From: Gemmatimonadaceae bacterium
GTDB lineage: Bacteria > Gemmatimonadota > Gemmatimonadetes > Gemmatimonadales > Gemmatimonadaceae
DNA length: 64,000 bases
Direction: 5' to 3'
NCBI GenBank assembly: GCA_035249985.1
Contig: DATFFP010000051.1
Coordinates: 4,781 to 68,780 of the forward strand
The notes beneath the pieces are model-generated. The model was given only the letters and a program-made list of their open reading frames with translations. It was not told the origin of the DNA and did not search any database. Each line of letters opens with the position of its first letter. Position 1 is the stretch's first letter. The translations under genes and the position numbers were made by a program. This document shows positions 7,931 through 61,295 of the stretch, one piece after another.

Positions 7931-8033
7931 CGAACGGCAGAGACGTCAGAGGTCAGAATACAGAATTCAGAGTTCAGACAAACTATCTGAACTCTGAATT
8001 CTGCAGTCTGACCTCTGACGTCTCTGCCGTTCG
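7931..8033. repeat. Hairpin element E1: 48-nt inverted arms made of WCAGARK heptads, 7-nt loop
   Basis: Left arm 7931-7978 is cgaacggcagagacgtcagaggtcagaatacagaattcagagttcaga. Right arm 7986-8033 is its reverse complement with 2 mismatches. It starts 5 nt after the TAA at 7925 and ends 35 nt before the pnuC ATG. It is AT-rich relative to the window. Confidence 0.9.
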
Positions 8034-8068
8034 GGCTCAAAGGGTCGGCGCTGACGTATCATTCCCTC

Positions 8069-8653
8069 ATGGATCCGATCGAAGTCACCGCGGCCCTGTT
8101 TGGAGTGGCGTCCGTCTATCTCAGCGCCCGCCAGAACGTCTGGAACTGGCCGCTGGGGATCATCAACGTCACCCTCTACATCTTCGTCTTCCACGAAGCG
8201 AAGCTCTATGCCGACATGGGGCTCCAGGCCGTGTACATCGTGCTCGCGGCCTACGGCTGGTGGCATTGGCTGCACGGCGGAACGAACCGCGGGGCCTTGC
8301 GCGTGTCGCGCGCGCCCCGACGAGAGATCATCCTGCTCACCATCGCGTTCGTCGCCGGCACGACCGCGCTCTCGACGCTCCTCGCGCGTACGACCGACGC
8401 GTCGCTTCCCCTCGCCGATTCGGCCCTCACCGCAGCCAGCCTCGTCGCGCAGTACATGATGACGCGCAAGTACGTGGAGTGCTGGCTGGTGTGGATCGCA
8501 GCCGACACCGCGTACGTCGCGATGTTCATCTACAAATCGCTCTGGCCGACCGCCGGACTGTATCTCCTGTTCACCGTTCTCGCTGTGGTCGGGTGGCGGC
8601 ACTGGCGGGCGTCGCTGCGCGAGCAGTCCCTTCCGCACGCCGCGTTCGCGTGA
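8069..8653 (+). CDS. pnuC: Nicotinamide riboside transporter PnuC
   Basis: 194 aa, about 7 TM segments. N-terminal EVTAALFGVASVYLSARQNVWNWPLGIIN and the WW-containing AAYGWWHW are typical PnuC signatures. Confidence 0.85.
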   Translation: MDPIEVTAALFGVASVYLSARQNVWNWPLGIINVTLYIFVFHEAKLYADMGLQAVYIVLAAYGWWHWLHGGTNRGALRVSRAPRREIILLTIAFVAGTTALSTLLARTTDASLPLADSALTAASLVAQYMMTRKYVECWLVWIAADTAYVAMFIYKSLWPTAGLYLLFTVLAVVGWRHWRASLREQSLPHAAFA

Positions 8654-9192
8654 GCGCCGAGCGCACGCGCCGGGTGACGGTCACGGGTTCAGAATCGACC
8701 GGAAAGACGTGGCTGGCTGAGCGACTGGCAACACGCTTCGAAACCGTCTGGTCGCGAGAGTTTTCCCGCGAGTACGCGCTCGACAAGGGCGCTCCGCTGG
8801 ACGCGTCCGACGTCGAACCCATAGCGCGGGGGCAGCTGCGCGGCGAAGACGAGATGCTCCGTCGAGCGCGCGGCCTGGCCATTCTCGATACCGATCTCGT
8901 CAGCACGGTGGTCTACGCGGAGCACTACTACGGACGGTGCCCACCCTGGATCGACGCCGCCGCACGAGGGCGGCTCGCCGAGCTCTATTTGCTGTGCGAC
9001 ATCGATGTGCCATGGGTCGGGGATCCGGCGCGCGATCGCCCGCACGCCCGGCACGAGCTCCACGCCGCGTTCACCAAACAGCTCGAGCGATACGGTGCGC
9101 AATGCGTGGCCGTGCGCGGGATTTGGGAGGAGCGAGAGGCCATAGCTGTCGCGGCGATCGAAGCTCGCCTCGCACTGCGGGCGCAGAAATAG
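8650..9192 (+). CDS. NadR-type ribosylnicotinamide kinase-like P-loop ATPase (kinase domain only)
   Basis: GTG at 8650 overlaps the pnuC stop (GTGA) and is in frame with ORF 8260..9192. P-loop VTVTGSESTGKTWL. Its ~180 aa length and pnuC linkage match the NadR C-terminal RNK domain. Confidence 0.7.
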   Translation: MSAERTRRVTVTGSESTGKTWLAERLATRFETVWSREFSREYALDKGAPLDASDVEPIARGQLRGEDEMLRRARGLAILDTDLVSTVVYAEHYYGRCPPWIDAAARGRLAELYLLCDIDVPWVGDPARDRPHARHELHAAFTKQLERYGAQCVAVRGIWEEREAIAVAAIEARLALRAQK

Positions 9193-9259
9193 AGCTCGCG
9201 GCTGGTCCGCGCACCTGGGGCACGCATTATCTTCCTGAAGTCGCGGTGGCGTCTCCGCC

Positions 9260-11503
9260 GTGTTGCACCCGCGCTTCCACCAACCGACGACTATCGTGTC
9301 GTACCTTCTCGCCCTGTTGCTCGCGCTGCTCACGGTGCGCGGCGAAGTTCGCGATGCCGTCACCGGAGAGCCGGTTGCTGGCGTGGTCGTAGCGTCCGCC
9401 TCCGCACAGGGCGGTACCGTGACCGATGACGCGGGCCGCTTCGCCCTGGAGCTGACTGGACCGGCGCGCGTTCGCTTTGCGCGCGTCGGATACCAGACGC
9501 TCGAGGTGGTCATCGCGCGCGACACCATTCTCGTGGTCAGCCTCGAACCCGCCGCGCCGTCGCTCGAGCGCGTGACCGTCACCGCGCTCCGCGGCGACGC
9601 GGATGCACCGATCCCACAGCGCACCATGGACCGGGAGGAAGTCGAACGGCGGTACGTGGGGCAGGATGTGCCGCTGCTGCTCACCGGTCAGCCATCGGTG
9701 ACGTCGTACGCGGAAGCCGGCGCCTTTTCGAACTACACCTACTTCCGTCTTCGCGGGATCGATCACACGCGAGTCAACATCACGCTCGACGGCGTACCGC
9801 TCAACGATCCCGAGGACCAGTTCGTCTACTTCTCGAACTTCCCGGATTTCGGGAACAGCCTCGAGTCGGTGCAGATCCAGCGTGGGGTCGGCACGAGCTC
9901 GTATGGGACGGCTGCGTACGCAGGGGCGATCAACTTTCAGTCCATGGCGCTCGCGAGCGCCGAGCGACGCGGCGAGGTGCAGGTCGGGCGCGGCTCATTC
10001 GGCACCACCCGTGGAAGCGCAGAGTGGATGTCGGGCCGTGTCAGCGACCGCTTCGCGGCGTACGCGCGCGCCTCGGCGCACCGCACGGAGGGGTACCGTC
10101 ATCACTCCGGGAACACCGGACAATCGTACTTCGCCAACGGAGCGTACTTCGGGGCCCGCGACATCCTGAAGATCACCGCGTTCGGCGGTCGATCCCGGAA
10201 CGAGCTCGCGTATCTCGCCGCACCGCTTCCCGATCTCGAGCGCGACCCACGTACCAACCCGCTCGGCGAGGACGAGCGCGATGACTTCCAGCAGCACTTC
10301 GCCAGTGCGTCGTGGACGCGCGCGCTCGGAGAGCAGGCCGCGATGCAGGCGACGGCCTACACGATCTGGGCGAGTGGCGACTACGACGTTCGCATCGCGC
10401 CCGACCTCTACAACTTCCAGCTCGCTTCACGAGTCACGGGCGCCCTCGCCACCTGGAGCGCGCGGCGCGGAGCGTTCGACCTCGACGTCGGCGCCCACGC
10501 GAACACGTACCACCGGGACCATGCCCTCGCCATCCGGCCCGACCTGGAGGCACTCGTCTATCACAACACCGGCCGAAAGCGCGAGCAGAGCGCGTTCGCG
10601 AAGGCCGTGCTCTCGCTCGGCGACCTCACGCTCTACGGTGATCTCCAGCTCCGTCACCCCGAATTCGAGTATGTGCCGTCCGAGGAGTCCGGCGTGGGAG
10701 GGCGGAGCATCGCGTGGACGTTCGTGAATCCAAAAGTCGGGCTCACCTGGGAGCTTTCGCGGCAGGCGACACTCTACGCGTCGTATGGGTCAAACGGCCG
10801 CGAGCCCACCCGCAATGACATGTTCGCTGGCTTCGACAACGTCGACACGACCAACATCGACTTCGTTGGCCCGCTGTCGCGCGTGCGTCCGGAGCGTGTG
10901 TATGACGGCGAAGCGGGCGTTCGCTGGCGGACCACGTCGCTCACGGCGAACGTCAACGTGTTCGACATGCGCTTCCGCAACGAGATTACGCCGGTGGGTG
11001 AGCTCAGCTACATCGGGCTTCCGCTCCGCAAGAACGTGCGCTCGTCGTACCGCCGCGGGATCGAGGCGGACGTGACCTGGCGGCTGATCCCGTCGCTCAC
11101 CGCGGCGGCGAACGCGACATTCAGCCGCAACCGCATCGCGGAGTACACCGACGACGCGTCGGGAGCGACGTACCGGGATGTGGAGCCCTTGCTCACGCCC
11201 GCGGTGCTGCTCAACCATGCACTCGACTGGCAGATGACGCCGGCCCTGTCGATGTCCGTGGGTGGTCGGTACGTGGGCCGGAGCTTTCTCGCCAACACCG
11301 GCGATCGCGCGTTCACGACGCCGGCGGCCTATCTGGCAGACGCGGGCCTTGCCTGGCGCCTCGGTCGTCACGAGCTCGCGCTCCACGTAATGAATGTTGG
11401 GAGTGCGCGATTCTACGCCGCCGGCTACACCGACGGCACGACGCCGTATTATTTCGTGACGGCGCCACGCGCCATCTTCGTCACGGCGACCGTCGGGTTC
11501 TAA
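9260..11503 (+). CDS. TonB-dependent outer membrane receptor with N-terminal carboxypeptidase-regulatory-like domain
   Basis: 747 aa. GEVRDAVTGEPVAGVVV...TDDAGRFAL (CarbopepD_reg-like), plug region (RVTVTALRG, FRLRGIDHTRVNITLDGVPLNDPED) and a long beta-barrel ending in the terminal F (FVTATVGF). Confidence 0.85.
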   Translation: MLHPRFHQPTTIVSYLLALLLALLTVRGEVRDAVTGEPVAGVVVASASAQGGTVTDDAGRFALELTGPARVRFARVGYQTLEVVIARDTILVVSLEPAAPSLERVTVTALRGDADAPIPQRTMDREEVERRYVGQDVPLLLTGQPSVTSYAEAGAFSNYTYFRLRGIDHTRVNITLDGVPLNDPEDQFVYFSNFPDFGNSLESVQIQRGVGTSSYGTAAYAGAINFQSMALASAERRGEVQVGRGSFGTTRGSAEWMSGRVSDRFAAYARASAHRTEGYRHHSGNTGQSYFANGAYFGARDILKITAFGGRSRNELAYLAAPLPDLERDPRTNPLGEDERDDFQQHFASASWTRALGEQAAMQATAYTIWASGDYDVRIAPDLYNFQLASRVTGALATWSARRGAFDLDVGAHANTYHRDHALAIRPDLEALVYHNTGRKREQSAFAKAVLSLGDLTLYGDLQLRHPEFEYVPSEESGVGGRSIAWTFVNPKVGLTWELSRQATLYASYGSNGREPTRNDMFAGFDNVDTTNIDFVGPLSRVRPERVYDGEAGVRWRTTSLTANVNVFDMRFRNEITPVGELSYIGLPLRKNVRSSYRRGIEADVTWRLIPSLTAAANATFSRNRIAEYTDDASGATYRDVEPLLTPAVLLNHALDWQMTPALSMSVGGRYVGRSFLANTGDRAFTTPAAYLADAGLAWRLGRHELALHVMNVGSARFYAAGYTDGTTPYYFVTAPRAIFVTATVGF

Positions 11504-11504
11504 C

Positions 11505-11960
11505 GTGGCGAGCCGTGCGCTCGAGTACGTTCTGGCGTTGCTCTTCACCGCCGACGCACGCGACGTCGTTCTGGTCCGCAAGACACGGCCTGCGTGGCAG
11601 GCGGGTCGCGTCAACGCGCTTGGCGGGAAGCTGCAGGACGGGGAAGCCATCCTCGAGGCCGCGCGACGCGAGGTGCGTGAGGAGGCCGGCGTCGATGTCG
11701 AGGAGTGGGAGCAGTTCCTCGTGTGGGACGATCCCGAGTATCGGCTGCGCGCCGTTCGTGCATTCGATGACGCCGCACATCGCGCGCGAACGGCCGAGGA
11801 TCAGGACGTCTTTCTGGCGCGGGTGGATGCGCTGCCGCCGAACGTGATCGACAACCTCCGGTGGATCATCCCCCTGGCGCTCGATCGCGACGTGGCCGTT
11901 CCCGTCGCGGTCACCAGTGCCAATCCCGCCGGATCCGGACTCACGGAACGACCGCGTTAG
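11505..11960 (+). CDS. NUDIX hydrolase
   Basis: 151 aa. Nudix box GGKLQDGEAILEAARREVREEAGV (GX5EX7REUXEEXGU). GTG start 1 nt after the receptor stop. Confidence 0.8.
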   Translation: MASRALEYVLALLFTADARDVVLVRKTRPAWQAGRVNALGGKLQDGEAILEAARREVREEAGVDVEEWEQFLVWDDPEYRLRAVRAFDDAAHRARTAEDQDVFLARVDALPPNVIDNLRWIIPLALDRDVAVPVAVTSANPAGSGLTERPR

Positions 11961-11972
11961 GTGCCCCTCGGT

Positions 11973-12491: not shown

Positions 12492-12622
12492 GAGCTCCTC
12501 CCACCGTGCGGTTCGAGCGGCAATCCTGGCGCCGCCAACGATGTCGCGCTCCTGCGCCACTCGGCAACTCCCTGCGTCGATTCGGTGATGCGCACCGCCG
12601 ACACGCGCGACACTGTTCGGGC

Positions 12623-14173: not shown

Positions 14174-14274
14174 CGACGTCCGAAAATGGCCAGCACTCGA
14201 CCCCTCGCGCCGATACGTTCCGTCCACGTCACACACTCAATCCGTGCTCTTGCGGCACGCCGGAGACCGCTGAC

Positions 14275-14775: not shown

Positions 14776-14825
14776 AGGGCCCCGAGCGCCCTCCCCACGC
14801 CGCCGGGGCTCGGTTACGTTGAAGC

Positions 14826-18448: not shown

Positions 18449-18474
18449 TCGTTGCCCCGCGAACCGAGGAATGA

Positions 18475-18918
18475 ATGGCGGACAAGGACTGGGATCGCGA
18501 GCTCGCCAAGATCGACAAGCAGCTGGAGTCGGTGTCCGACGAGCAGCTCTTTCCCAAGAGCGCCGCGAAGACGACGCCTCAACGAGAGGCCATCGCCGAA
18601 AAGCAGTCGCGTACGTCGACGTTCGGTGTGCTGCTGCGCCTGTTGCTGAGTGTGGCACTCGGCATCGGGATGATCTTCTGGCCCTACCAGGCGCGATGCG
18701 GCCTCGGCTTGTTGGGGTACCTGCTCGCCGTGGTCGTGCTGATCGGCGCCGGCGGCTGGAGCGCGGTGTGGGCCTGGCGCCACCGCGCCGGCAAGGCCCA
18801 CGTGCTTTCCCTGCTCATCATGCTGTGGGGAGCGATCCTGGGCGCACAGGAGATCCTTCCACGCGTGGGGTACGCCATCCCGACGCTCGATCGGCCCAAC
18901 GTGTGGGAATGCGAATAA
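18475..18918 (+). CDS. Membrane protein, hypothetical (147 aa)
   Basis: Soluble N-terminus followed by 3-4 hydrophobic segments (FGVLLRLLLSVALGIGMIFW, LLGYLLAVVVLIGAGGW, VLSLLIMLWGAILGA). Confidence 0.55.
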   Translation: MADKDWDRELAKIDKQLESVSDEQLFPKSAAKTTPQREAIAEKQSRTSTFGVLLRLLLSVALGIGMIFWPYQARCGLGLLGYLLAVVVLIGAGGWSAVWAWRHRAGKAHVLSLLIMLWGAILGAQEILPRVGYAIPTLDRPNVWECE

Positions 18919-18921
18919 CTG

Positions 18922-19000
18922 GATTGCGGATGACGGATTGCGGATTGCGTATGCCGCACCCCGTACGCAATCCGCAATGCGTCGTCAGTCATCCGCAATC
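18922..19000. repeat. Hairpin element E2: arms of GGATTGC heptads, 12-nt loop, 7-nt bulge in the 3' arm
   Basis: 5' arm 18922-18951 is gattgcggatgacggattgcggattgcgta. 3' arm 18964-19000 is tacgcaatccgcaatgc[gtcgtca]gtcatccgcaatc. It starts 3 nt after the TAA at 18918 and ends 9 nt before the aldehyde dehydrogenase ATG at 19010. Confidence 0.85.
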
Positions 19001-19009
19001 GGTCCACTC

Positions 19010-20509: not shown

Positions 20510-20607
20510 AAAGGCGCTGAGGGCGCTGGGGCGCTGCGGGCGCTGCGGGTCAAATGGCCCTCGCCCTTCAGCGCTTCCAGCGCCTTCAGCGCTTCCAGCG
20601 CCTTTTT
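20510..20607. repeat. Hairpin element E3: arms of four 9-nt GCGCTGNNG units, 14-nt loop, closing A/T run
   Basis: 5' arm 20510-20549 is aaaggcgctgagggcgctggggcgctgcgggcgctgcggg. 3' arm 20564-20607 is cccttcagcgcttccagcgccttcagcgcttccagcgccttttt. The GCGCTG cores pair perfectly and the spacers pair mainly as G:U in plus-strand RNA. It starts at the base after the TGA at 20509. Confidence 0.85.
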
Positions 20608-20617
20608 GCTCTTCCCA

Positions 20618-22723: not shown

Positions 22724-22756
22724 GAACGGGGCGGCCTTCGGGCTCGCCCCGTTCTT
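22724..22756 (+). terminator. GC-rich stem-loop with UUCG tetraloop after rpoD (possible terminator, weak U tract)
   Basis: GAACGGGGCGGCC-ttcg-GGC(t)CGCCCCGTTC followed by TTGC. About 13 bp of stem with one bulge, 23 nt after the TAA at 22701. It lies in the part of ORF 22722..24722 that I excluded from the peptidase CDS. Confidence 0.45.
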
Positions 22757-22811
22757 GCTCCAGAGAGTGCCGAACGCACTTTTTCCAAGCGAACGCACAC
22801 CTCCCAACCCG

Positions 22812-27314: not shown

Positions 27315-27427
27315 GGGTCTCCTCAGGGTCCTCAGGGTCCTCAGGGTCCTCAGGGTCCGAGGTGCTCGGGGTTTTCGCACCCTGAGGACCCTGAGGACCC
27401 TGAGGACCCTGAGGACCCTGAGGACCC
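27315..27427. repeat. Hairpin element E5: 9-nt CCTCAGGGT units, 4 (+1 partial) in the 5' arm versus 5 in the 3' arm
   Basis: 5' arm 27315-27358 is gggtctcctcagggtcctcagggtcctcagggtcctcagggtcc. The loop is 27359-27378. 3' arm 27379-27427 is (accctgagg)x5 + accc. It starts at the base after the yajQ TAG at 27314 and ends 36 nt before rimO. Confidence 0.9.
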
Positions 27428-27463
27428 TTCGCCGCTCTCTCTCCCCCCACTAGCTTCTCCTGA

Positions 27464-34704: not shown

Positions 34705-36590
34705 GTGGATACTCCGTCGGCATCGATGTCGGCGGAACGTTTACCGACCTCATCGCCATTGCCGCCGATGGGCGCGTCGAGGGGAGAAAGGTGCTGTCGA
34801 CGCCCGCGGACCAGAGTCAGGGTGTGCGCGACGCGCTGCGTGCGTTAGGCGCGCCCTCCGGCGAGGTCGAGTATATCGCGCACGGCACGACCGTGGCGAC
34901 GAATACCCTTCTCGAGCGAACAGGCGCCCGCGTCGTCCTGTGTGCGTCCGAAGGTGCCACCGACCTGCTCGAGCTGCGTCGCCAGGAGCGCGCCGCGCTC
35001 TACGATCTGACGAAGCACCACCCCGATCCGCTCGTCCCGCATGATCGGATTGTCGCCGTGCCGGAGCGCGTCGAGCCGCAGGGAATCGTGAGGCCGCTCG
35101 ATGCCACGTCGGTCCGGCGCGTGGCACAGCAGGCTGTCGAGCGCACGCCGGAGGTCGTGGCCGTGGCGCTGCTGCACTCGTTTCACGACGGGCGTCACGA
35201 GCGGGCGTTAGGTGCCGCGCTGCGATCGCTGATCGCCGGCGTCGACGTCGTGCTCTCGTCGGAGGTGCTTCCGGAAATTCGTGAATACGAGCGCACCGCG
35301 ACGACCGTCGCCGAGGCGTACCTCCGTCCATCGGTCGGAACGTACCTGCGACGCGTGGCGGACGATCTGGTGCAGGCAGGATACCCCGCGCCCGCCGTGA
35401 TGACCTCTGCCGGCGGAATGCGCACCGCCGCCGATGCGGCACACACCGCGGCATCGCTCGCGCTCTCGGGGCCAGCCGGTGGGATTCTCGGCGCTGCGGC
35501 CGTGGCTCGGCAGGCGGGGATCGTGGATGCGCTCACCATCGATATCGGAGGGACGAGCGCGGATGCCGGGTTGGTCCTCGAGGGAGAGCCACTCTCCGAG
35601 CCCGGAGGCGCGATCGCCGGCGTGCCGATCGCGCTGCCCCGTGTCCTCGTGGAGACGGTGTCCGCGGGCGGCGGCAGCATCGCGTGGGTGGACCCCGGAG
35701 GCGCGCTTCGTGTGGGACCGCGCTCCGCCGGGGCGAATCCTGGTCCCGCTGCCTTTGGGCGCGGCGCTACCGACGCGACGGTGACGGACGCGCACATTGT
35801 GCTCGGCCACATCGACGCGTCCCGGATGAGCGGAGGGGTAACGCTCGATCCTTCAGCGGCGCACCGGGCGGTCGACGCGCTTGCTCAACGCCTGTCGGCC
35901 CCCGCCGAGCGAGTGGCGCGAGCGATCGTCGCCGCCGTCGATGCGGCCATGGCCCGTGCGCTGCGCCGAGTAAGCGTGGAGCGTGGCGTCGATCCAAGGC
36001 GATGTGTCCTGGTGGCCTTTGGCGGGGGTGGGCCACTTCACGCCTGTGCGCTGGCGACACTGCTCGGCATGACCCGCATTCTCGTGCCGCCGCACGCCGG
36101 GGTGCTGAGCGCGTTAGGCCTGGCCATGGCGCCGGAGCGGCGCGATGCGATGCGAAGCGTCATGCGACACGCCGAGCAGCTGGACCGCGCGAATGTGACC
36201 GCCATGTGCGAGGAGCTCGCGGCGCGGACCGGAGAAGGAGCGGAACGTCGCTGGTGGGCCCATGTGCGTTACGTGGGGCAAGGGCACGAGCTCGATGTTC
36301 CCGTGACTCCCGAGGACGATGGCGCGACGATCGCCACACGGTTTGCCACGCTGCATACGGCTCGCGCGGGCTTCACGCTCGAGCGACCAGTCGAGGTCGT
36401 GAGTCTCCGCCATGCCACCTTCGGCGTCGCTCGTGAGGCACGAGTGGGGAGCGCAAGCACGGATGGCCCGGCGGCGCCGGTGCGAGGGCCTGCCGTGGTT
36501 CCGCTGCCCGACGCGGCGATGCGAGTCGAGGCGGGATGGCACGCAAGGCCGCTGCCAACTGGCGGGTACATGATGGAGCGCTCCACGTGA
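34701..36590 (+). CDS. hyuA: Hydantoinase/oxoprolinase family protein, A subunit-like
   Basis: 629 aa. N-terminal VGIDVGGTFTDLIA (ASKHA fold), then TIDIGGTSADAG. ATGA overlap with the lnt stop. Confidence 0.85.
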   Translation: MSGYSVGIDVGGTFTDLIAIAADGRVEGRKVLSTPADQSQGVRDALRALGAPSGEVEYIAHGTTVATNTLLERTGARVVLCASEGATDLLELRRQERAALYDLTKHHPDPLVPHDRIVAVPERVEPQGIVRPLDATSVRRVAQQAVERTPEVVAVALLHSFHDGRHERALGAALRSLIAGVDVVLSSEVLPEIREYERTATTVAEAYLRPSVGTYLRRVADDLVQAGYPAPAVMTSAGGMRTAADAAHTAASLALSGPAGGILGAAAVARQAGIVDALTIDIGGTSADAGLVLEGEPLSEPGGAIAGVPIALPRVLVETVSAGGGSIAWVDPGGALRVGPRSAGANPGPAAFGRGATDATVTDAHIVLGHIDASRMSGGVTLDPSAAHRAVDALAQRLSAPAERVARAIVAAVDAAMARALRRVSVERGVDPRRCVLVAFGGGGPLHACALATLLGMTRILVPPHAGVLSALGLAMAPERRDAMRSVMRHAEQLDRANVTAMCEELAARTGEGAERRWWAHVRYVGQGHELDVPVTPEDDGATIATRFATLHTARAGFTLERPVEVVSLRHATFGVAREARVGSASTDGPAAPVRGPAVVPLPDAAMRVEAGWHARPLPTGGYMMERST

Positions 36591-38128
36591 CCGCCGAGAC
36601 GTTCGACCTCCTCGATCTTCAGGTCATGGCGCACGCGTTCGCCGCCATCGCCGAAGAGATGGGGACCGTGCTCGTGCGCGGCGCCCTGTCGCCCAACATT
36701 CGTGAGCGCCGTGACTCGTCGTGCGCTCTGTTCGACGCCCGCGGCGCGATGGTGGCCCAGGCGGCGCACATTCCCGTCCACCTCGGTGCCATGCCGGAAG
36801 CGGTGCGAGCGGTGATCGCGCGCCGTCCGCAGCCTGGCGACGTGTTTCTCCTCAATGACCCGTTCACCGGCGGATCGCATCTCCCCGACCTCACGCTCGT
36901 GGAAGCCGTGGCCCACGAAGGGCGCGTAGCGGCATTCACGGCTGTTCGCGCGCATCATGCCGATGTTGGCGGCATGAGCCCGGGAAGCATGCCGCAGGGC
37001 GCCACCGAGCTGGTCCAGGAAGGCCTCGTGCTTCCCCCGGTGCGCCTCGCCACGCAGCACGGGATCGCGGATGATGTCATGTCGATTCTGCTCGCCAACG
37101 TGCGGACACCTGACGAGCGCCGCGGTGACATGCGGGCACAGTTGGGCGCCTGCGCGGCCGGCCGAGCGAGCTGGCGGGCCCTCGTCGCGCGTGAGGGAAT
37201 CGCCCGAGTGCAGCAGGCGGGACAGGCATTGATGGACTACGCCGAGCGAAGTGCGCGCGAGGCGCTGCGCGCCTTGGGCAACCGAGTCGGCCGCGCGGAG
37301 GACGCGCTCGAGGGCGATGGTGTGACTGAGGACGATGTGCGCGTGGTCGCGACGGTTCGCCAGCAGGACGGACGTCTCGTGTGTGACTTCACGGGGTCAT
37401 CCGCCCAGGTGCGCGGCAACGTCAATGCCCCGCTTGCTGTCGCGCGGGCGGCGGCGGTGTTCGTGCTGCGGACGATGCTCGACGACGAGGTTCCGATGAA
37501 CGATGGCATCGGGAGAGCGGTCGACGTGATCGCCCCGCGCGGAACGGTCATGAATGCGACGTGGCCCTCGGCCGTGGCTGCGGGCAATGTCGAGCTCTCG
37601 CAGCGCATGACCGATACGCTGTTCGCGGCGCTTGCCGACGCTGGCATCGATGTACCGGCGCAAGGGCAGGGGACGATGAACAACGTCACGTTTGGAGGCG
37701 CTGGTTGGACCTTCTACGAAACGCTGGGCGGAGGGCAGGGAGGCTCTTCCCGCGGCCCCGGTCCGAGCGCGGTGCACGTCGGGATGAGCAACACGCGCAA
37801 CACTCCGATCGAATCCCTGGAGTGGTCGCTGCCGTTGCGCATCGATGAGTACGCGATCCGGCGCAAGACGGGCGGCGAGGGCGCTGCCCGCGGCGGTGAT
37901 GGCGTCGTTCGGCGCTACCGGGTGCTCGAGCGCTGTACGGTGACCCTGCTGACGGAGCGCCGCCGCCGTTCCCCGCGTGGAGCCGCGGGCGGTGCGGCCG
38001 GGGCACCCGGCCGGAATTCACTGAATGGGAAGTGGCTCCCGGCCAAGTGCAGGGTCGAGATGGGGCCGGGGGATGTGTTGAGTATTGAGACGCCTGGCGG
38101 AGGGGGGTACGGCGAACGGCAAAGATGA
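36587..38128 (+). CDS. hyuB: Hydantoinase B/oxoprolinase family protein
   Basis: ORF 36536..38128 trimmed to GTG 36587 (GTGA overlap with the hyuA stop). [17 protein letters not shown] and the C-terminal ETPGGGGYG are typical of Hydantoinase_B. The stop codon lies inside hairpin E6. Confidence 0.85.
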
Positions 38129-41215: not shown

Positions 41216-41344
41216 GTGGGGTCAGGAGTCAGGAGTCAGGGGCCAGGGGGGTCAGCGATTCGGTGCCGGAGTCGCGCGTGCCGGTTCCCTCGAACCTTCA
41301 CCCTGACACCCCCTGATCCCTGACTCCTGACTCCTGACCCCTAC
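41216..41344. repeat. Hairpin element E7: GGGGTCAGG/TCAGGAG heptad arms (about 41 bp, 4 mismatches) around a 45-nt loop
   Basis: Arm 41216-41255 is gtggggtcaggagtcaggagtcaggggccaggggggtcag. Arm 41301-41344 is ccctgacaccccctgatccctgactcctgactcctgacccctac. It ends 1 nt from the crp stop (41346-41348) and lies upstream of the MBL gene start at 41148. Confidence 0.9.
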
Positions 41345-42020: not shown

Positions 42021-42105
42021 GCGAGCACGCCGTTCCGAGGGTGAGAGTGCCGCGGCAACTTACGCCGCGCCACGACATCTGTCAAACGCACAAGCCATTG
42101 TCGCC

Positions 42106-42135
42106 TTGTCTTTTACGGGCCGTCCAGGATATATT
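42106..42135 (+). promoter_or_regulatory. Possible promoter for rpmE-prfA-prmC (TTGTCT-N18-TATATT) in the crp/rpmE divergent gap
   Basis: TTGTCT at 42106-42111 and TATATT at 42130-42135, 34 nt upstream of the rpmE GTG. GAGAGG Shine-Dalgarno-like sequence at 42158-42163. This is a pattern match only. Confidence 0.3.
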
Positions 42136-42168
42136 GCACTGCTACCATCTTTGTCACGAGAGGCACAA

Positions 42169-48666: not shown

Positions 48667-48709
48667 GAGGAACGAGGAATGAGAGAGCGGATCGACTTCC
48701 TCGTTCCTC
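48667..48709. repeat. Hairpin element E11 (mini): perfect 13-bp stem made of two GAGGAAY heptads, 17-nt loop
   Basis: gaggaacgaggaa (48667-48679) pairs with ttcctcgttcctc (48697-48709). It lies in the 84-nt gap between the DAHP synthase stop (48726) and the lolA-like start (48641). Confidence 0.75.
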
Positions 48710-48725
48710 ATTTCTCGCTCTAGTT

Positions 48726-57287: not shown

Positions 57288-57328
57288 GGGGGGAAAATAG
57301 CGATGGAACCGGGGGCAACAAAGGGATC

Positions 57329-57466
57329 AGGAGCTAGGGGTCAGGGGTCAGGGGTGGAAAAAGGGGCCGCCGCGCTTCGCGCGTGCGGCCCCTCATCGGA
57401 TGAGCGCGGCAGCGGAGCTGCCGCACCTTTCCACCCCTGACCCCTGAGCCCTGACCCCTAGCTCCT
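57329..57466. repeat. Hairpin element E9: GGGGTCA heptad arms (2 versus 3 units) enclosing a ~65-nt insert with two GC hairpins
   Basis: Arm 57329-57360 is aggagctaggggtcaggggtcaggggtggaaa. Arm 57427-57466 is ctttccacccctgacccctgagccctgacccctagctcct, with one extra heptad. The TAG stop (57465-57467) of the 1086-aa OMP gene overlaps the arm. Confidence 0.9.
57358..57393 (-). terminator. Canonical intrinsic terminator nested inside E9 (14-bp GC stem, U5 tract on minus strand)
   Basis: On the plus strand, 57362-57370 (aggggccgc) pairs with 57385-57393 (gcggcccct), and the inner cgcgc/gcgcg stem has a ttc loop. On the minus strand the stem is followed by UUUUU (complement of a57358-a57362). It lies about 72 nt after the OMP gene stop. 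Confidence 0.6.
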
Positions 57467-60400
57467 AAAAGCTCGGGCCCAACGAGAACCTCCAATACTT
57501 GTCCCGCCTCGGATCGTCCAGAGGAATCGCGTAATCCCACCGCAGCAACGCGAAGTTGAAGAGGTTCACCCGAACGCCGAATCCGTAGCTTCGCAGCGCG
57601 TGCCGCTGGAATGCCGGATCGAACCCCGCCGGCCTCGACCAGTGCAGGTTCTGCCCCTCGAACCACGTGAGGCCGACGTCGTAGAACACCAGCCCCTCGA
57701 TAGGCGGCAGCGAAATGGGGAGGAGACCGATGTCGACGCGCCGCAGCAGCGGGAACCGCACCTCGACGTTGGCGACGGCGATGCGACTGCCCACGAGCGG
57801 TGAGCAGCGGTAGTACCGCGGATCGTCGCTCGACGGATCGTTGAAGGCGCATTGCCTGATCTCGTTGAGCGCGAACTCCTCCCGGTCGTAGCCCCGAAGC
57901 AGCTCGGGATATCCGATGTACTTGCGGAGCGTATCGGCGTCGCGGCCGTCGGACACGCTGGCGAGCAGACGTGTCGAAAGCGTGAGGAAGTTGAACAGGA
58001 TTGGATCGTACCGTCGATAATCGAGGAGGTAATCCATCCACTTGTACGTCCCGATGATCGGCTCGACTTGCAACCGATAGCGCCGACCCATGATCGGGCC
58101 CGTGTAGCCCCACAGCACGTTGTCGGATACGAAGGCCGCGTAGGGCTGGACGTAGTTGATGCTCGGCTGGTGGACTTCGTCGAGTATCTGGAACGGCGTC
58201 GCCGCACCGGTGAACTCGTTGATCAGACGCCCAATGAACAGCGACGAGCGGTCGACGTTCGACAGCCGCGCTCCGAACTCGGTGCGCGTGAATCGGTCGA
58301 ACGGATAGATGCCGATGCCGAAGACCTGCCGCTCGATGATCCGCGTGATCGGGTAGATCTCTTCCCAGACGCCGTCGCCAATGGGCTGGAGCGCGCCGAC
58401 TTCGGGGAAGTAGTACGGCGACTGATAGGCACCCACCGCGTACTGCATCCGACGCGACAGGTTGGTGTACGCGCTGTACACGCGCGCCTCGCTCAACCGC
58501 CCATTCACTTCGCCAGAGAAGGCGAGGCGGTGGTTGCCGAGCATGTCGCTCAGGACGATCTGCGTTCCGCCGAAGAACCCGCGGCCGAAGTTGTACTGCT
58601 CGTACCCGATCGTCGGACGGGCGACATAGTCGGGGCTGAAACGAACCTTGTAGTCGTACGTCTTGAACCCTCCCGCGTCCGGCAGCGCCATGGCCGCGCT
58701 ATCGAGCAGCGCCGCGACGCTGATCGGCCCGCCACGCGAGGCCAGCTCGGCGGCCGGCGGTGGGTTCTGTGAGGGACGGATGCCCGCCGGACTCCGGTAG
58801 TACGAGTAGTGCGAGTTCGTGCCATTGCTGTCGACCGCCGCGGTCAGCGTCGCGCCGGTATCGGAGGGGAGGACGGCACTCGACACCAGCACCGTGTCAC
58901 TCGTGGGCGCGCCCGCCACCAGAGGCGTGCGGGGCTCCGGAGCCCGATAGGGCGACCGTTTCAGTGACCGCGGATTGTCGATCGACCAGATGGTGTAGTC
59001 GCCGTTCTCGTAGTAGGTGATCGCCAGCTTGTCGGCTTGACGCGCCCATGAGATCACCGGGCTGTAGTTCGTGGCGGCGGTGATGCCACCGACCACGTTC
59101 GTCAGCTGGAAATGCTCGCTGGTCTCGACCTCGTAAAGGAAAAGATTCTGGATGCCGGTTCGCGTCGAGACGTAGGCGATCGACCGGCTGTCGGGCGACC
59201 ACATCGGGTTGATGTTGTGCGCGTCCTGTCCGGGAAGCACGTCGATGCGTCCCGTCTCGAGATCATATGTGCTGATCTTCCAGGCGCTGTACCGAAGGAC
59301 GTTGAAGTCGGTCTCTGCCCCGCGATCGCTGGCGAACGCGATACGCTTGCCATCGGGCGACCACTGCGGCTGCAGGTCACCGTGGCGGTCGTTGGTCAGC
59401 TGCGTGAGCTGCGAACCGTCCGACTGGACGAGGTAGAGATCGCTGATCCCGCCGAGGTGGCCGGAAAAGACGAGGCGGCTGCCGTCTGGCGACCACGACG
59501 GGCCGGTGACGCCCTCGAGGTGCGTGTCGATGCGACGAATGACCTTCTGCTTCCGGACGTCGAGCAGATACAGGACGTCCTTCCCCTTGCGCTGCGCGGT
59601 GAACGCGAGCGTGCGGCCGTCCGGCGAGAAAGAGCTCTGCGAGTACAGCAGGCGCAGCTCCTCGAACTCCGGATTCGTCGTGCTCTTGACGAGCCGCTTG
59701 AGGCGCTTGCCCGTTCGCGCATCGGCCATCCAGAGGTCGATGAAGATCTGGCCGCGGAGAAAGCTCCCGTTGGACAGGAAGACGATTTGCTCGCCGTTAG
59801 GCGACAGGGCGGGGGCGAGAAAGATCGCGCCGCCGCTCCGGCGCTCGGAGAGCAGGGGTTGCGCGTATTTCCGGGCACGTTCCAGGTCGGCGATCTGCGG
59901 CAGGTGCTTGACCTGCATCGCCTCCTTCCACTCATCGCCGAGGTCCTCGAGCGACTTCCCGAGCTCGCGGCGGAACGCGCGTTCGACACCCACGTTGGGT
60001 GCCGCCTGGAGGATCGCTCCGATGACCTCGTCTCCCCACCGATCGCCGACGTACTCCCAGAGCGCCTGCCCGATGTCGTACGGGTTATGCTGATCCGGCC
60101 GCATCGTCAGCTGCTCGATCGTCGGTAGCCGGCCGTTGAGCGCTGCGTCTCGCATCACCGTGTTCGCGAACGGGTCGCCGGGTCCGAGCGACAGATACTC
60201 CGCCATGCCTTCGGCGAACCAGTACGGCATTGCCTGCTGCTGAAGCGTCTGCAGACCCGCGCCTGCCTTGCCGCGAGAGTAGATGTCGTACTGGAATTCG
60301 TGCACCATCTCGTGTGTCAGCACCTGCTCGAACGATCCGTAATCGCCCGTAAAGGGCATCAGGATCCGGTGGCGCAGGGCCTCGGTAACGCCGCCCGTGA

Positions 60401-60722
60401 ACTCACCGAGATCGCCGGTGACGTTGTTTTGCCCGAAGTCGGATCGCGAGGCGAACAGGACGATCGGCTTCTTCTCGCGAAACTCGTGACCGAGGATTCG
60501 CGAGAGGCGCCCGTATGCGCGCTCGGCCATTCGGCCAGCGTCGCGGGCCGCCGTCTCCTCACCCTGGTAGTAGTGCACGAGGAAGTGGTCGGTCTCGATG
60601 ACCTTCCAGTCGAACGAGTCGTACTGGACCTGGTTCTGCCCGAAGTAGAACTGGGCTTCCGCGCGCGGGGCGATCGCCAGTACGGCGGCGAGCGCACCCA
60701 GCAGCAATCTCCGTTCGATCAC
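57465..60722 (-). CDS. Large outer-membrane fusion protein: HExxH peptidase-like domain + PD40/TolB-type beta-propeller + C-terminal Omp85/surface-antigen-like barrel
   Basis: ORF 57465..60770 trimmed to GTG 60722 (GTGA overlap with the rsfS stop). Signal peptide LLLGALAAVLAIAPRAEAQ. LTHEMVHEF...FAEGMAEY. Five PD40-like repeats (SPNGEQIVF, SPDGRTLAF, SPDGSRLVF, SPDGKRIAF, SPDSRSIAY). Beta-rich C-terminus ending RFSLGPSF (terminal Phe). Confidence 0.75.
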   Translation of the reverse strand: MIERRLLLGALAAVLAIAPRAEAQFYFGQNQVQYDSFDWKVIETDHFLVHYYQGEETAARDAGRMAERAYGRLSRILGHEFREKKPIVLFASRSDFGQNNVTGDLGEFTGGVTEALRHRILMPFTGDYGSFEQVLTHEMVHEFQYDIYSRGKAGAGLQTLQQQAMPYWFAEGMAEYLSLGPGDPFANTVMRDAALNGRLPTIEQLTMRPDQHNPYDIGQALWEYVGDRWGDEVIGAILQAAPNVGVERAFRRELGKSLEDLGDEWKEAMQVKHLPQIADLERARKYAQPLLSERRSGGAIFLAPALSPNGEQIVFLSNGSFLRGQIFIDLWMADARTGKRLKRLVKSTTNPEFEELRLLYSQSSFSPDGRTLAFTAQRKGKDVLYLLDVRKQKVIRRIDTHLEGVTGPSWSPDGSRLVFSGHLGGISDLYLVQSDGSQLTQLTNDRHGDLQPQWSPDGKRIAFASDRGAETDFNVLRYSAWKISTYDLETGRIDVLPGQDAHNINPMWSPDSRSIAYVSTRTGIQNLFLYEVETSEHFQLTNVVGGITAATNYSPVISWARQADKLAITYYENGDYTIWSIDNPRSLKRSPYRAPEPRTPLVAGAPTSDTVLVSSAVLPSDTGATLTAAVDSNGTNSHYSYYRSPAGIRPSQNPPPAAELASRGGPISVAALLDSAAMALPDAGGFKTYDYKVRFSPDYVARPTIGYEQYNFGRGFFGGTQIVLSDMLGNHRLAFSGEVNGRLSEARVYSAYTNLSRRMQYAVGAYQSPYYFPEVGALQPIGDGVWEEIYPITRIIERQVFGIGIYPFDRFTRTEFGARLSNVDRSSLFIGRLINEFTGAATPFQILDEVHQPSINYVQPYAAFVSDNVLWGYTGPIMGRRYRLQVEPIIGTYKWMDYLLDYRRYDPILFNFLTLSTRLLASVSDGRDADTLRKYIGYPELLRGYDREEFALNEIRQCAFNDPSSDDPRYYRCSPLVGSRIAVANVEVRFPLLRRVDIGLLPISLPPIEGLVFYDVGLTWFEGQNLHWSRPAGFDPAFQRHALRSYGFGVRVNLFNFALLRWDYAIPLDDPRRDKYWRFSLGPSF

Positions 60723-61099
60723 GGTTGTCCTCCCTCGCGGTCCATCGGGACGCGCTCGGCGTCGCTCCACAGACGTTCGAGCTGGTAAAACTCACGGAGT
60801 GTCGGATGGAAGACGTGCACGATCACGTCGACGTAATCGAGCAGCACCCACCGTCCCGACTGGAGACCCTCGATATGGTGCGGTGCGACACCTTCACGTT
60901 TTTTGAGCCCCTCCATGATGTGTTCGGCCGTGGACCGAACATGGGTATCGGAGGTGCCGCTGGCGATGACGAAGAAGTCGGTGGCGTCGGAAACGCCGGA
61001 GAGATCGAGGAGGACGACGTCGGTAGCCTTGAGGTCCAGCGCGAGCGCGGCGGCTCGTTGAGCGGTGGCGAGCGAAGAGATGGTCGTCGACTGGGCCAT
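60719..61099 (-). CDS. rsfS: Ribosome silencing factor RsfS (iojap family)
   Basis: 126 aa. DLKATDVVLLDLSGVSDATDFFVIASGTSDTHVRSTAEHI...WVLLDYVDVIVHVFHP...Y.LE.LW is a typical RsfS sequence. Confidence 0.85.
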   Translation of the reverse strand: MAQSTTISSLATAQRAAALALDLKATDVVLLDLSGVSDATDFFVIASGTSDTHVRSTAEHIMEGLKKREGVAPHHIEGLQSGRWVLLDYVDVIVHVFHPTLREFYQLERLWSDAERVPMDREGGQP

Positions 61100-61200
61100 T
61101 CGGAGACCGTTCAGGAATCTGATGAACGCACTGCGTCGGCCGTTCTACCGGCCGAGGCAGGAGGTTGTTCCGTTAGGGCGCATTGGGTGTGCCAAAACCC

Positions 61201-61295
61201 AAGGCGCTGAAGGCGCTGAAGGCGCTGGGAGCGCTGAAGGAGATGTGAGGCCGATCACCTCCAGCGCCTCCAGCGCCTTCAGCGCCTTCACCGCC
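61201..61295. repeat. Hairpin element E10: arms of four 9-nt GCGCTGRRG units, 15-nt loop, same unit family as E3
   Basis: Arm 61201-61242 is aaggcgctgaaggcgctgaaggcgctgggagcgctgaaggag. Arm 61258-61295 is cctccagcgcctccagcgccttcagcgccttcaccgcc. It ends at the base before the rplI stop codon (61296-61298). On the minus strand it is followed by GGGTTTTGG. Confidence 0.9.

Follow-up and report, generated by a model that had tools for sequence, protein, structure and literature searches.

Small palindromic elements with tandem-repeat arms behind stop codons in a Gemmatimonadaceae soil bacterium

The window analyzed here, a 64,000-nucleotide stretch of a Gemmatimonadaceae contig, contains eleven loci, each built from units of 7 or 9 nt arranged as inverted arrays (Table 1). 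Gene positions derive from ENA gene calls on near-identical contigs together with Pfam-checked open reading frames; the taxonomic context is provided by the yajQ neighbors, all of which are Gemmatimonadaceae/Gemmatimonadales metagenome-assembled genomes (MAGs). The eleven hairpins with inverted tandem arms, first described in an earlier note on this DNA, were recovered by repeat finders, by folding and by a dedicated detector. At ten of the loci, Tandem Repeats Finder called an array of period 7 or 9 in each arm, and at the 18922 locus the 5' array alone; arm copy numbers are unequal as had been claimed (3.0 vs 7.1, 4.3 vs 5.6 and 2.9 vs 3.9). In an inverted-repeat search of the window, the element arms came out longest (25–53 nt, 76–100% complementary). 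Folded as RNA in gene orientation, all loci except 48667–48709 reach −51 to −118 kcal/mol, and ten of the eleven fold far better than their dinucleotide shuffles (z = −4.7 to −21.4). The detector, which demands a Tandem Repeats Finder array of period 5–12 with at least 2.5 copies and a reverse complement of that array aligning within 170 nt, returned 11/11 loci and no others, and every strong array in the window is paired. Across the window and 80 related loci, 76 arrays score at least 14, versus 2 in a control in which arrays were reversed without complementing.

Table 1. Palindromic elements of the window, with their gene context and relatives on other contigs (L numbers)
Positions	Element	Fold (kcal/mol)	z	Gap to upstream stop (nt)	Upstream gene	Next gene start	Structure	Relatives and variants
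7931..8033	TCAGAAT family, diverged sub-family; termini CGAACGGCAGAGACGTC...GACGTCTCTGCCGTTCG	−90.1	−15.5	5	92-aa gene 7647-7925 (+)	NMN transporter, 35 nt on	arms 48 nt, loop 7 nt	
18922..19000	GGATTGC unit	−51.3	−6.9	3	147-aa gene 18475-18918 (+)	aldehyde dehydrogenase (19010), 9 nt on	3' arm degenerate	orthologous site: GGAATGC in L007, AACGAGG in L008
20510..20607	GGCGCTGRG 9-nt (partly 8-nt) unit	−70.3	−5.9	0	aldehyde dehydrogenase (stop 20509)		between AAA...TTTTT; tail scored terminator-like	5' arm +10 nt in near-identical L002
26698..26788	CTGCGAR unit	−55	−4.7	6	637-aa Big/LVIVD gene	yajQ, 25 nt on	3 units in 5' arm, 7 in 3' arm	3' arm −7 nt in L001, −21 nt in L002; unit also in L018, L146, L166
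27315..27427	CCTCAGGGT 9-nt unit	−108.8	−10.3	0	yajQ (stop 27314)		4.3 and 5.6 copies; loop with small hairpin, then TTTT	orthologous site: unit CGTCAGGGT in both arms in L008, no element in L007
38116..38212	TCAGAAT family, short form	−71.6	−16.1	overlap	convergent pair hydantoinase B (+) / GAF-HD (−), gap filled		terminus (AAAGATGAC) supplies TGA stop 38126-38128	
41216..41344	GGGGTCA/GGAGTCA unit	−99.6	−10.9	1	Crp-family gene (−; stop 41346)	(−) gene, 67 nt on	structured 58-nt loop	
44326..44430	TCAGAAT family, short form	−82.9	−21.4	9	prmC (stop 44316)	ylbF-like gene, 23 nt on	53-nt arms	Logan contig L006 begins within the element
48667..48709	GAGGAAY unit, smallest and weakest	−25.9	−2.95	17	DAHP synthase (−; stop 48727)	lolA (−), 25 nt on		relative at L176:4313-4377; 1-nt indel vs L004
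57329..57466	GGGGTCA unit, composite	−118.3	−14.0	overlap	1101-aa PD40/Omp85 gene (−), TAG stop		loop: two hairpins around TCATCNGATGAG, one a GC stem then UUUUU (− strand, 57358-57393)	core with GGGGTCA or GGGCCAA arms at L168:3684, L168:6354, L181:2619; orthologous gap in L159: TCAGAAT-family long element
61201..61295	AAGGCGCTG 9-nt unit	−85.3	−11.4	0	rplI (L9; −; stop 61296)		TTTT run 6 nt past element on − strand (...GCGCC TTGGG TTTTGG)	orthologous site in L181: GAGGTGCTC units, flanks unchanged

The elements adjoin stop codons, and both the gene bodies and the three divergent gaps of the window (3237–3512, 12492–12622 and 42021–42168) contain none of the eleven. This placement, claimed before for the window, also holds across 81 Gemmatimonadales loci, among whose 48 elements 35 are co-directional, 8 convergent and none divergent, compared to 70 divergent gaps among 414 background gaps. 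The median distance between element and stop is 8 nt in this set, and 7.5 and 4 nt in two further counts. The elements persist almost solely in the first few nucleotides past the stops of co-directional or convergent genes. The further proposal that they mark almost every transcription-unit boundary did not hold; other gaps of the window possess ordinary hairpins or nothing, and at five of the ten co-directional elements the next start codon is only 9–35 nt away, which is too short for a promoter.

Such positions would suit intrinsic terminators that evolved in place, with slippage lengthening their stems, compensatory selection preserving the pairing and no locus being a copy of another. Agreeing with this reading are the confinement of the elements to sites just past stops and outside divergent gaps, the T runs (at elements 20510 and 61201, and in the loops of 57329 and 27315) or inner GC hairpin with T tract that several possess, the directly observed slippage described below, and a conserved terminator-like inner hairpin common to L017 and L024, around which the heptamers differ. 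We nevertheless consider it unlikely. A 19-nt TCAGAAT-family terminus matches 98 contigs from soil metagenomes (61–68% GC in 88 cases), which yield 72 full elements at 55 further distinct loci with unrelated flanks. At least 55 loci have in common 14-nt unique termini (R-ACGGCAAAGATGAC...GTCATCTTTGCCGT-Y), the unit order T-A-T-T and an inner hairpin, which makes an independent origin impossible; as the contigs were chosen via one perfect terminus, the conservation of the termini is overestimated and mirrored changes there are hidden. Most outer stems also lack a U tract, with T at position +1 and a C-rich flank beyond, and half of the co-directional window elements stand 9–35 nt before the next start.

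The TCAGAAT elements form a size series, from a 36-nt minimal palindrome through one-arm arrays and the common 4+4-unit forms to nested composites of up to 359 nt, and a target-site duplication is absent at 52 of the 55 loci. The same contigs hold 53 more elements of other families, including ~19 GCTCGAGGT, 8 ACGCGGATT, 7 GGAATGC and 5 GGGCCAA elements. In total, 35 unit families were counted in 163 elements; the units are 7, 8 or 9 nt long, and each family has its own unit at many loci. The inverted-array architecture, with other units, is present in many related Gemmatimonadaceae/Gemmatimonadales MAGs. The metagenome contigs were placed in Gemmatimonadaceae by GC content, by the element families they have in common and by three alignable contigs (79–89% identity to the window), not by marker genes. 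The earlier description of one architecture but not one sequence thus stands within the window, while beyond it each unit type is a multi-copy dispersed family, so that the loci are copies of palindromic founders and were not shaped independently. All eleven loci belong to a large, lineage-specific superfamily of palindromic repeats dispersed in Gemmatimonadaceae, and the soil bacterium probably carries hundreds of these small elements. Counting against this model, unique termini outside the array are missing from most families apart from TCAGAAT, leaving no obvious feature for a mobilizing enzyme to recognize.

Repeats break assemblies, and palindromes could in principle be artefacts of short-read metagenome assembly; seven contig ends coincide with half elements, and L006 and L009 both start partway through an element. 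The same elements recur in independent assemblies of different samples, which refutes this reading, and they are found in 1-Mb long-read MAG contigs (L007) as well, leaving its probability negligible.

The arms change at the scale of strains. Compared to four contigs of 99.5–99.9% identity, all four indels of the window fall inside elements; three (−7, −21 and +10 nt) are each confined to the repeat array of one arm, confirming the slippage that the earlier note had proposed, and the fourth is a single nucleotide. At another locus, L183 has two units more than L106. Elements acquire and shed entire units over the time it takes strains to diverge. In related species, orthologous gaps contain other families or none.

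The earlier note had further taken the retained complementarity of the two arms, across loci with different units, as covariation-type evidence for selection on the folded structure. This evidence is weak. Loci of different families do not represent homologous positions. In TCAGAAT elements, the arms of one copy differ from each other at 3.9 positions per 42 nt, compared to 4.0–4.2 against the arms of other copies, and only 23 of 237 deviations from the consensus have a counterpart in the opposite arm. Mirrored unit variants are in slight excess (0.68 vs 0.61, p = 0.0015), and mirrored changes are seen only between sub-families; in the terminus of the 7931 element, from a diverged sub-family, all five differences from the family consensus are matched in the opposite arm. 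Within-copy compensation is nearly absent, a further point against terminators maintained in place. Apart from unit gain and loss, copies decay arm by arm, and arm complementarity appears to be mostly inherited from palindromic founders rather than restored at each locus.

Arm-by-arm decay is also the behavior of neutral repeats and, together with presence/absence and family replacement at orthologous gaps and the occurrence of nested insertions, it lends some weight to the view that the elements are selfish or neutral DNA, whose RNA or DNA structure has no role and whose position merely marks where a long palindrome is harmless. We regard this as possible, if rather doubtful. Two observations oppose it. 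Long forms, which carry a GC-hairpin/T-tract core, occupy convergent gaps in 15 cases and co-directional gaps in 8, against 1 and 16 for short forms (Fisher p = 2e-4), the context classes being partly uncertain on short metagenome contigs, where genes come from a crude caller (2–3 'divergent', 1–3 'inside gene'). This split implies a transcriptional effect of the core that is seen by selection, though harm avoidance alone could give the same split; it suggests a terminator role for the long form and a 3'-hairpin role for the short form. Secondly, the purine-rich arm comes first (5') in 31 of 35 unrelated families (p = 3.5e-6), which needs a directional constraint. As reported, an ordinary terminator exists at 57358–57393; its place, however, is within the loop of the 57329–57466 element.

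Alternatively, the elements could act as double-stranded DNA, as multimeric sites for a nucleoid or regulatory protein, as cruciforms or as G-quadruplexes. Inverted tandem short units do resemble multi-site protein-binding ends, and the precedents have been read in this manner (protein sites in Geobacter metallireducens, G-quadruplexes in Xanthomonas). We find this very improbable; a single sequence-specific protein is hard to reconcile with the 35 or more unrelated units, of three lengths, in one lineage, promoter gaps are avoided, and a quadruplex cannot be general since most units lack G runs (TCAGAAT, CTGCGAA, GGATTGC).

Taken together, we favor as the probable explanation a superfamily of small dispersed palindromes, REP/REPIN- or MITE-like in behavior, for which we infer modes of growth and copying and roles in RNA. 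Arms would lengthen through slipped-strand mispairing, and entire palindromes would then be copied to new sites by some mechanism, with complementarity passed down from the palindromic founder. A transposase or other mobilizing gene was not found, and the case for mobility is drawn only from the copy number and the unrelated flanks. Transcribed together with the gene upstream, the elements would fold into predicted 30–60-bp hairpins. Forms with a GC hairpin and A/T tracts, or with a T run after the element, are putative (bidirectional) terminators. Array-only forms would not be efficient terminators; inside operons they may block 3' exonucleases or offer sites for RNase III, or may merely be tolerated. 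The analogy for a barrier is the REP hairpins of E. coli, which shield upstream mRNA from 3' exonucleases. The purine-first polarity may stop C-rich RNA from meeting Rho before pairing.

The elements are not a new class; partial precedents exist, and the behavior is of the REP type. Bacterial MITEs (Correia/NEMIS, Nezha, Chunjie) are likewise small, non-coding and dispersed, and their inverted ends allow them to fold into hairpins; they share transcripts with neighboring genes, and Correia elements are cleaved by RNase III. Here, in contrast, the entire element and not the termini alone is palindromic, target-site duplications are lacking, and an insertion sequence that shares the ends and could be the parent was not seen. 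Intrinsic (Rho-independent) terminators share the hairpin just past the stop and, in some elements, the U tract or the inner GC hairpin with A/T tracts; they differ in stem length (5–14 bp vs 25–60 bp here), in the U tract missing from most outer stems here, in the many elements 9–35 nt ahead of the next start, and in the multi-copy families. Cyanobacterial STRR sequences (cited in PMC4692102) are intergenic tandem heptamers with several sequence types per genome, a likeness that, with the varying copy number, extends to the TAACTGA repeats of Beggiatoaceae. The latter are mostly direct, with 169 direct sets versus one indirect set in the 'Maribeggiatoa' genome (PMC4679880). Both are largely direct arrays, often upstream of starts, and not palindromes behind stops.

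The suggestion of a REP/BIME-like element pointed to the right neighborhood. REP/BIME and REPIN sequences, mobilized by RAYT transposases (Bertels & Rainey 2011, PMC3116915; Di Nocera et al. 2013, PMC3733652), are high-copy extragenic palindromes without target-site duplication that often touch or supply stops, form doublets that are ~100-nt hairpins, and occur as several families per genome. The Gemmatimonadaceae elements differ in having no GTAG or CGTC tag and in arms that are tandem arrays of variable unit number, and the suggested search for a RAYT gene found none in the 1.69 Mb examined.

Whether the family was already known had been left as a question; close relatives in kind have been described. 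In Xanthomonas, GGGAATC heptamers form ~185 arrays per genome, with 70–75 convergent pairs that are potential stem-loops; they are strongly biased to positions within 50 bp of, or overlapping, a stop with the G-rich strand first, and are rare in divergent gaps and mostly transcribed; X. campestris and X. axonopodis have different unit numbers (Rehm et al. 2015, PLoS One, PMC4692102). The likeness lies in paired arrays at stops, few or no divergent gaps and unit-number variation, and the Gemmatimonadaceae locus L020 uses the identical heptamer in the rotation CGGGAAT. The Xanthomonas arrays, however, have a single unit type, were read as a G-quadruplex motif and are unpaired in a quarter of cases (PMC4692102), whereas Gemmatimonadaceae possess at least 35 unit types (7, 8 or 9 nt), most without G runs, with unique termini, inner cores and nested composites documented here. 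The 'putative global regulator binding sites' of classes 1–3 in Geobacter metallireducens are pairs of opposite-strand sites, each of 3–5 tandem 7–9-nt repeats, at 8–24 loci per class (Aklujkar et al. 2009, BMC Microbiol, PMC2700814). They differ in being given in supplementary alignments only and read as IHF/HU sites, with no analysis of stop-codon position, slippage or turnover (PMC2700814). The class 3 units ATTCTGA and CTCCTGA are the reverse complements of the TCAGAAT and GGAGTCA units of the window.

The eleven hairpin loci that the earlier note described from sequence alone were found as described when the sequence was re-read, and the observation is real and statistically secure. At ten loci, Tandem Repeats Finder detected arrays of period 7 or 9 in each arm; at 18922 it detected one in the 5' arm alone (elements are named by their start coordinate). 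The longest inverted repeats of the 67 % GC window are the element arms, 25-53 nt long and 76-100 % complementary. RNA folding of the loci in the direction of the upstream gene gave -51 to -118 kcal/mol at ten of them, with z of -4.7 to -21 against dinucleotide shuffles; 48667 is a small element with a marginal fold (z -2.95 against the same type of control). A detector that looks for a short-period array and its reverse complement aligning within 170 nt returned all eleven loci in the window and no others. Across the window and 80 related loci, 76 arrays scored >=14, versus 2 in a control with the array reversed, not reverse-complemented. Rfam gave no match at gathering score in the window; its E-value mode matched nothing but models of eukaryotic (plant and animal) miRNA precursors, all below threshold, the best at 51 bits against a gathering score of 65. 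These hits are a generic long-hairpin effect that could mislead automatic annotation. The window holds no tRNA or tmRNA genes.

Gene positions were taken from ENA metagenome contigs 99.5-99.9 % identical to the window, with Pfam scans for the remainder. Co-directional gaps hold 10 of the 11 elements, every one of them (10/10) closer to the stop than to the next start, and five lie 9-35 nt from that next start; 38116 occupies a convergent gap, the sole such case in the window, and no element was found in its three divergent gaps. The same distribution extends to the 48 elements of the window and 80 yajQ loci of related genomes, with 35 in co-directional, 8 in convergent and 0 in divergent gaps, against a background of 304, 40 and 70 gaps of >=60 nt, respectively. 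The median distance to the stop codon is 8 nt for these 48 elements and, in metagenome contigs, 7.5 nt for the TCAGAAT family (families are named by unit sequence) and 4 nt for other families. Because ordinary hairpins occupy other gaps of the window (a GC stem with T5 at 2045-2102, another at ~22725-22760), the elements are not its sole 3' structures. At 38116-38128, the element terminus doubles as the final three codons and TGA stop of the hydantoinase B gene. Elements adjoin yajQ in 10 of 37 cases, a suggestive enrichment confounded by how the loci were gathered.

The 80 loci, obtained by a YajQ protein scan, all come from Gemmatimonadaceae or Gemmatimonadales MAGs (closest at 96 % protein identity), and many carry the identical architecture built from different units. 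Periods among the 48 elements are 7 (n=31), 9 (n=9), 8 (n=7) and 5 (n=1, GC-rich, called within a gene and doubtful). Overall, 35 unit families were counted among 163 elements. The 64-kb window holds 11 elements, and 341 kb of related contigs hold 53 belonging to other families, a density of roughly one per 6-7 kb. An assembly artefact was considered and rejected: the elements recur in independent assemblies and, since the assembly behind yajQ locus L007 is a long-read one that includes a 1-Mb contig, they are not short-read artefacts. Contig ends often fall within elements (L006:1-27, on a Logan contig; L009:1-70; seven half elements among metagenome contigs L087-L184), making the elements assembly break points in metagenomes. 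One metagenome contig, L095 (Ga0126384_10020546, 51 % GC), belongs to an unrelated organism and was retrieved because the 19-mer matched by chance; on it lie three elements with this architecture, at 429-528, 2820-2904 and 3919-4132 with AT-rich units (CGCAGATTA, TTTCGTGTAA, ATTTAGA/GGTCTTT), so the architecture also exists outside Gemmatimonadaceae.

Elements, related families and gap contents. Stop distances are in nt; U tract refers to the position directly after the stem; miRNA spans are the sub-threshold Rfam matches (E-value mode); indels are relative to near-identical contigs.
Feature	Location	Stop distance	U tract	miRNA span	Indel or content
Window element	7931	5	none	7949-8015	
Window element	18922	3	none	18921-18993	
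Window element	20510	0	after GC-rich stem	20514-20592	5' arm +10 nt
Window element	26698	6	none		3' arm -7 and -21 nt
Window element	27315	0	after inner hairpin	27315-27428	
Window element	38116	overlap	none		
Window element	41216	1	none	41217-41342	
Window element	44326	9	none		
Window element	48667	17	none		1 nt
Window element	57329	overlap	after inner hairpin	57326-57469	
Window element	61201	0	TTTT run starts 6 nt past element	61203-61295	
ACGCGGATT-type arm family	L007:9778-9931				
ACGCGGATT-type arm family	L097:288-431				
ACGCGGATT-type arm family	L118:359-502				
ACGCGGATT-type arm family	L145:1436-1587				
ACGCGGATT-type arm family	L150:3670-3823				
ACGCGGATT-type arm family	L038:9738-9940				
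Nested TCAGAAT/ACGCGGATT composite	L097:226-570				
Nested TCAGAAT/ACGCGGATT composite	L175:2741-3099				
Nested TCAGAAT/ACGCGGATT composite	L168:2265-2473				
Nested TCAGAAT/ACGCGGATT composite	L156:11-150				
Gap downstream of yajQ	window				CCTCAGGGT
Gap downstream of yajQ	L008				CGTCAGGGT in both arms
Gap downstream of yajQ	L007				none
Gap downstream of yajQ	L017, L024				conserved inner hairpin between GCTAGAC or GACGTTC
Gap downstream of PD40/Omp85 gene	window				GGGGTCA composite
Gap downstream of PD40/Omp85 gene	L159				TCAGAAT long form
Gap downstream of rplI	window				AAGGCGCTG
Gap downstream of rplI	L181				GAGGTGCTC, same flanks
ychF-rpsF gap	window				empty
ychF-rpsF gap	L181				145-nt GGGCCAA composite

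Within the window, the similarity of 38116 and 44326 extends past the unit itself, and 7931 is related to them but diverged. The 19-nt terminus ACGGCAAAGATGACAGAAT, searched for as an exact match in metagenome contigs, was present in 98 of them. The 88 contigs with 61-68 % GC hold 72 full elements (70 of them from outside the window), representing 55 distinct loci whose flanks are unrelated; ten low-GC contigs (36-51 % GC, one half-site each) were taken as chance 19-mer matches, two after checking by eye, and left out. The TCAGAAT family is thus a short imperfect palindrome in many extragenic copies, 55 distinct loci plus three in the window. Its termini are conserved as R-ACGGCAAAGATGAC...GTCATCTTTGCCGT-Y; the sole flank preference, R at -1 and Y at +1, seems to belong to the element itself, and the 55 loci showed no target motif upstream. 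Sizes run from a 36-nt minimal palindrome through 50- and 64-nt forms with units confined to one arm, a short class of ~97-99 nt and a long class of ~129-132 nt with the inner palindrome GAAACGACCACGGGGAGCC-N6-GGCTCCCCGTGGTCGTTTC, to composites of 209-359 nt that nest an element of another family (ACGCGGATT units).

Two routes to such copies were weighed. That arms were added round free-standing terminators was rejected for TCAGAAT: in 31 occurrences the inner hairpin CGGGGAGCC...GGCTCCCCG has a TCAGAAT arm on either side, and the nine remaining hits comprise six with a TCAGAAT arm on one side (composites) and three unrelated one-mismatch matches. Insertion into the loop of a pre-existing hairpin was rejected as a general rule, flanking complementarity of >=3 nt being present in only 8 of 55 copies. 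A single clear case was seen on a metagenome contig (L122:2110-2240), where a TCAGAAT copy sits exactly central in an unrelated 2 x 15-nt palindrome (CGGGGGTCGTAAGAG / element / CTCTTACGACCCCCG), complementarity extends 18 nt past the element, and the copy appears to have inserted at the tip of a hairpin that was already present.

The TCAGAAT-bearing contigs also carry 53 elements of other families, several multi-copy with conserved loops, and among their units CTGCGAA, GAGGCGCTR, GAGGAAC and GGGGTCA match the window, the last with the two-hairpin core of 57329. This asymmetric core showed no consistent orientation relative to the upstream gene in four copies. One family, whose 9-nt arms are of the ACGCGGATT type, combines a conserved ~70-nt core (CTCTCCTCTACAGGAGCAA...GTGTTTTTTTCC...GAGGAGAG) with outer palindromic flanks (GGCATCCAGGTTCAAAGGGGGGGA...); several Gemmatimonadaceae species share it, and it may represent a small RNA or else a mobile element of larger size. 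In the nested composites, TCAGAAT arms enclose an element of this family and a GC hairpin, the palindrome layers being concentric.

The retained complementarity of arms whose units change from locus to locus had been read as covariation evidence for selection on structure. The evidence proved weak, because differences between families are not at homologous positions and mirrored changes within TCAGAAT are few. The two arms of a TCAGAAT copy differ at 3.9 of 42 positions, and arms of different copies at 4.0-4.2; deviations from the consensus are mirrored in both arms in 23 instances versus 214 unmirrored, a count from which mirrored changes at the terminus are hidden since the search needed one perfect terminus. 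Double changes affect 3 of 45 pairs in an alignment of 24 long-form copies. The order of the variable seventh bases agrees slightly better within a copy (0.68) than between copies (0.61; permutation p = 0.0015), and fully mirrored changes separate TCAGAAT sub-families (7931; a 64-nt copy in metagenome contig L106). The scarcity of mirrored changes within the family argues that arm complementarity is mostly inherited from palindromic founders, and selection on pairing, if any, would have acted on those founders. The eleven loci stand, but in place of eleven structurally selected hairpins we now see them as part of a superfamily of palindromic repeats that are dispersed, prone to slippage and settle behind stop codons.

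Comparison of the window with four near-identical contigs over ~67 kb identified ~108 substitutions, of which zero fall inside elements, and indels, all of which do. At one metagenome locus, two contigs differ by two additional units in one arm. Element content also differs between orthologous gaps of related genomes (table).

Most families share a polarity: of 35, 31 have a purine-rich 5' arm (binomial p = 3.5e-6), and G exceeds C in that arm in 27 families versus 5; as the elements are palindromic, this purine-first polarity is valid on both strands. Rho prefers C-rich unpaired RNA. A purine-first hairpin would never leave C-rich RNA exposed before its partner is available, and avoidance of Rho may be the reason for the polarity.

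We compared the elements with described repeat classes. Like REP sequences and REPINs, the TCAGAAT family, including its 36-nt minimal palindrome, is a multi-copy extragenic palindrome, and 52 of 55 loci have no target-site duplication. One end of a REP bears a conserved tetranucleotide, GTAG or CGTC (Di Nocera 2013, PMC3733652), whereas TCAGAAT termini read R-ACGGCAAAG and other families begin straight with the array; 41216, the sole element ending in GTAG (- strand), does so by chance. GTAG-tagged REPs also often provide stop codons (PMC3733652). No HUH/Y1 motif and no tblastn hit to RAYT/IS200 was found in 1.69 Mb of contigs, none a complete genome, with approximate query sequences. The elements have terminal inverted repeats as MITEs do, being palindromic throughout, but lack a fixed-length target-site duplication; no terminus pair surrounds a transposase-sized ORF in the contigs, which are short, and the longest composites (209-359 nt) contain other repeats and no genes. 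With neither the REP tag nor the MITE duplication, and no RAYT seen in 1.69 Mb, the elements are not assigned to either class, although they behave like both.

Closer relatives exist. In Xanthomonas, arrays of the heptamer GGGAATC form 70-75 convergent pairs per genome that lie near or over stop codons, seldom between divergent genes, and vary in unit number; they were interpreted as G-quadruplex motifs (Rehm et al. 2015, PMC4692102). The Gemmatimonadaceae elements share the two convergent heptamer arrays, the location within ~50 bp of the stop, the rarity between divergent genes and the purine/G-rich-first polarity; they lack the >=4 G tracts of a G-quadruplex, which was rejected as a general explanation since most units have no run of three G (e.g. 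TCAGAAT, CTGCGAA, GGATTGC, GAGGAAC, GCTCGAGGT). Geobacter metallireducens possesses paired tandem-repeat sites, including ATTCTGA/CTCCTGA arrays, for which IHF/HU binding was proposed (Aklujkar et al. 2009, PMC2700814); they too are opposite-strand pairs of 3-5 tandem 7-9-nt units at multiple intergenic loci, and the class 3 heptamers are units of the window. We found no description of such elements in Gemmatimonadota in the literature, with limited coverage of subscription journals. The kind is already known; the new features are the lineage, the large number of 7-9-nt unit families, the rule on polarity, the sorting of long and short forms, and the turnover of families at orthologous gaps. 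The elements also connect the observations from Xanthomonas, Geobacter and cyanobacteria, each with its own ad hoc reading (G-quadruplex, IHF sites, STRR).

The distribution of TCAGAAT forms hints at function. The long form, whose GC hairpin is bordered by A and T tracts and whose inner hairpin is directly followed by a U tract, occupies convergent gaps in 15 of 23 cases, whereas 16 of 19 short forms are in co-directional gaps, often <=30 nt from the next start (Fisher p = 2e-4). A T run is absent after most outer stems. Together with the 9-35-nt gaps, this sorting is consistent with a core able to terminate transcription, which convergent ends tolerate or benefit from, and with hairpins of arrays alone through which transcription continues. 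Stems of 30-60 bp would serve as RNase III substrates and 3'-exonuclease barriers, by analogy with what is shown for REP and Correia elements in other bacteria.

Taken together, a speculative and rather unlikely model can be drawn, in which a sequence-independent process builds and spreads tandem-unit palindromes by slippage, palindrome copying and insertion in or beside hairpins, recognising the architecture, perhaps via a putative enzyme, in Gemmatimonadaceae and perhaps Xanthomonas and Geobacter. In these genomes, mRNA 3' ends would be determined mainly by the elements, with the terminator form at convergent ends and the read-through form in operons, and Rho would impose the purine-first order. 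Should the main picture, of dispersed palindromic repeats behind stop codons, be right, a little-studied soil phylum has its own REP equivalent, and the elements would shape transcript ends and operon partitioning. Testable beyond earlier reports are the single architecture and polarity across many unrelated units, the sorting of forms with and without a terminator-like core between convergent and co-directional gaps, and the re-occupation of orthologous gaps by different families; unit numbers are strain markers.

Three annotation details of the window were noted in passing. As called, the genes for hydantoinase A and B share 55 nt (36536-36590). By eye from the sequence, the S6-DUF2232 "gap" at 62914-63043 resembles the start of ribosomal protein S18 (- strand), and the ORF at 60719-61099 (- strand) resembles the ribosome silencing factor RsfS.
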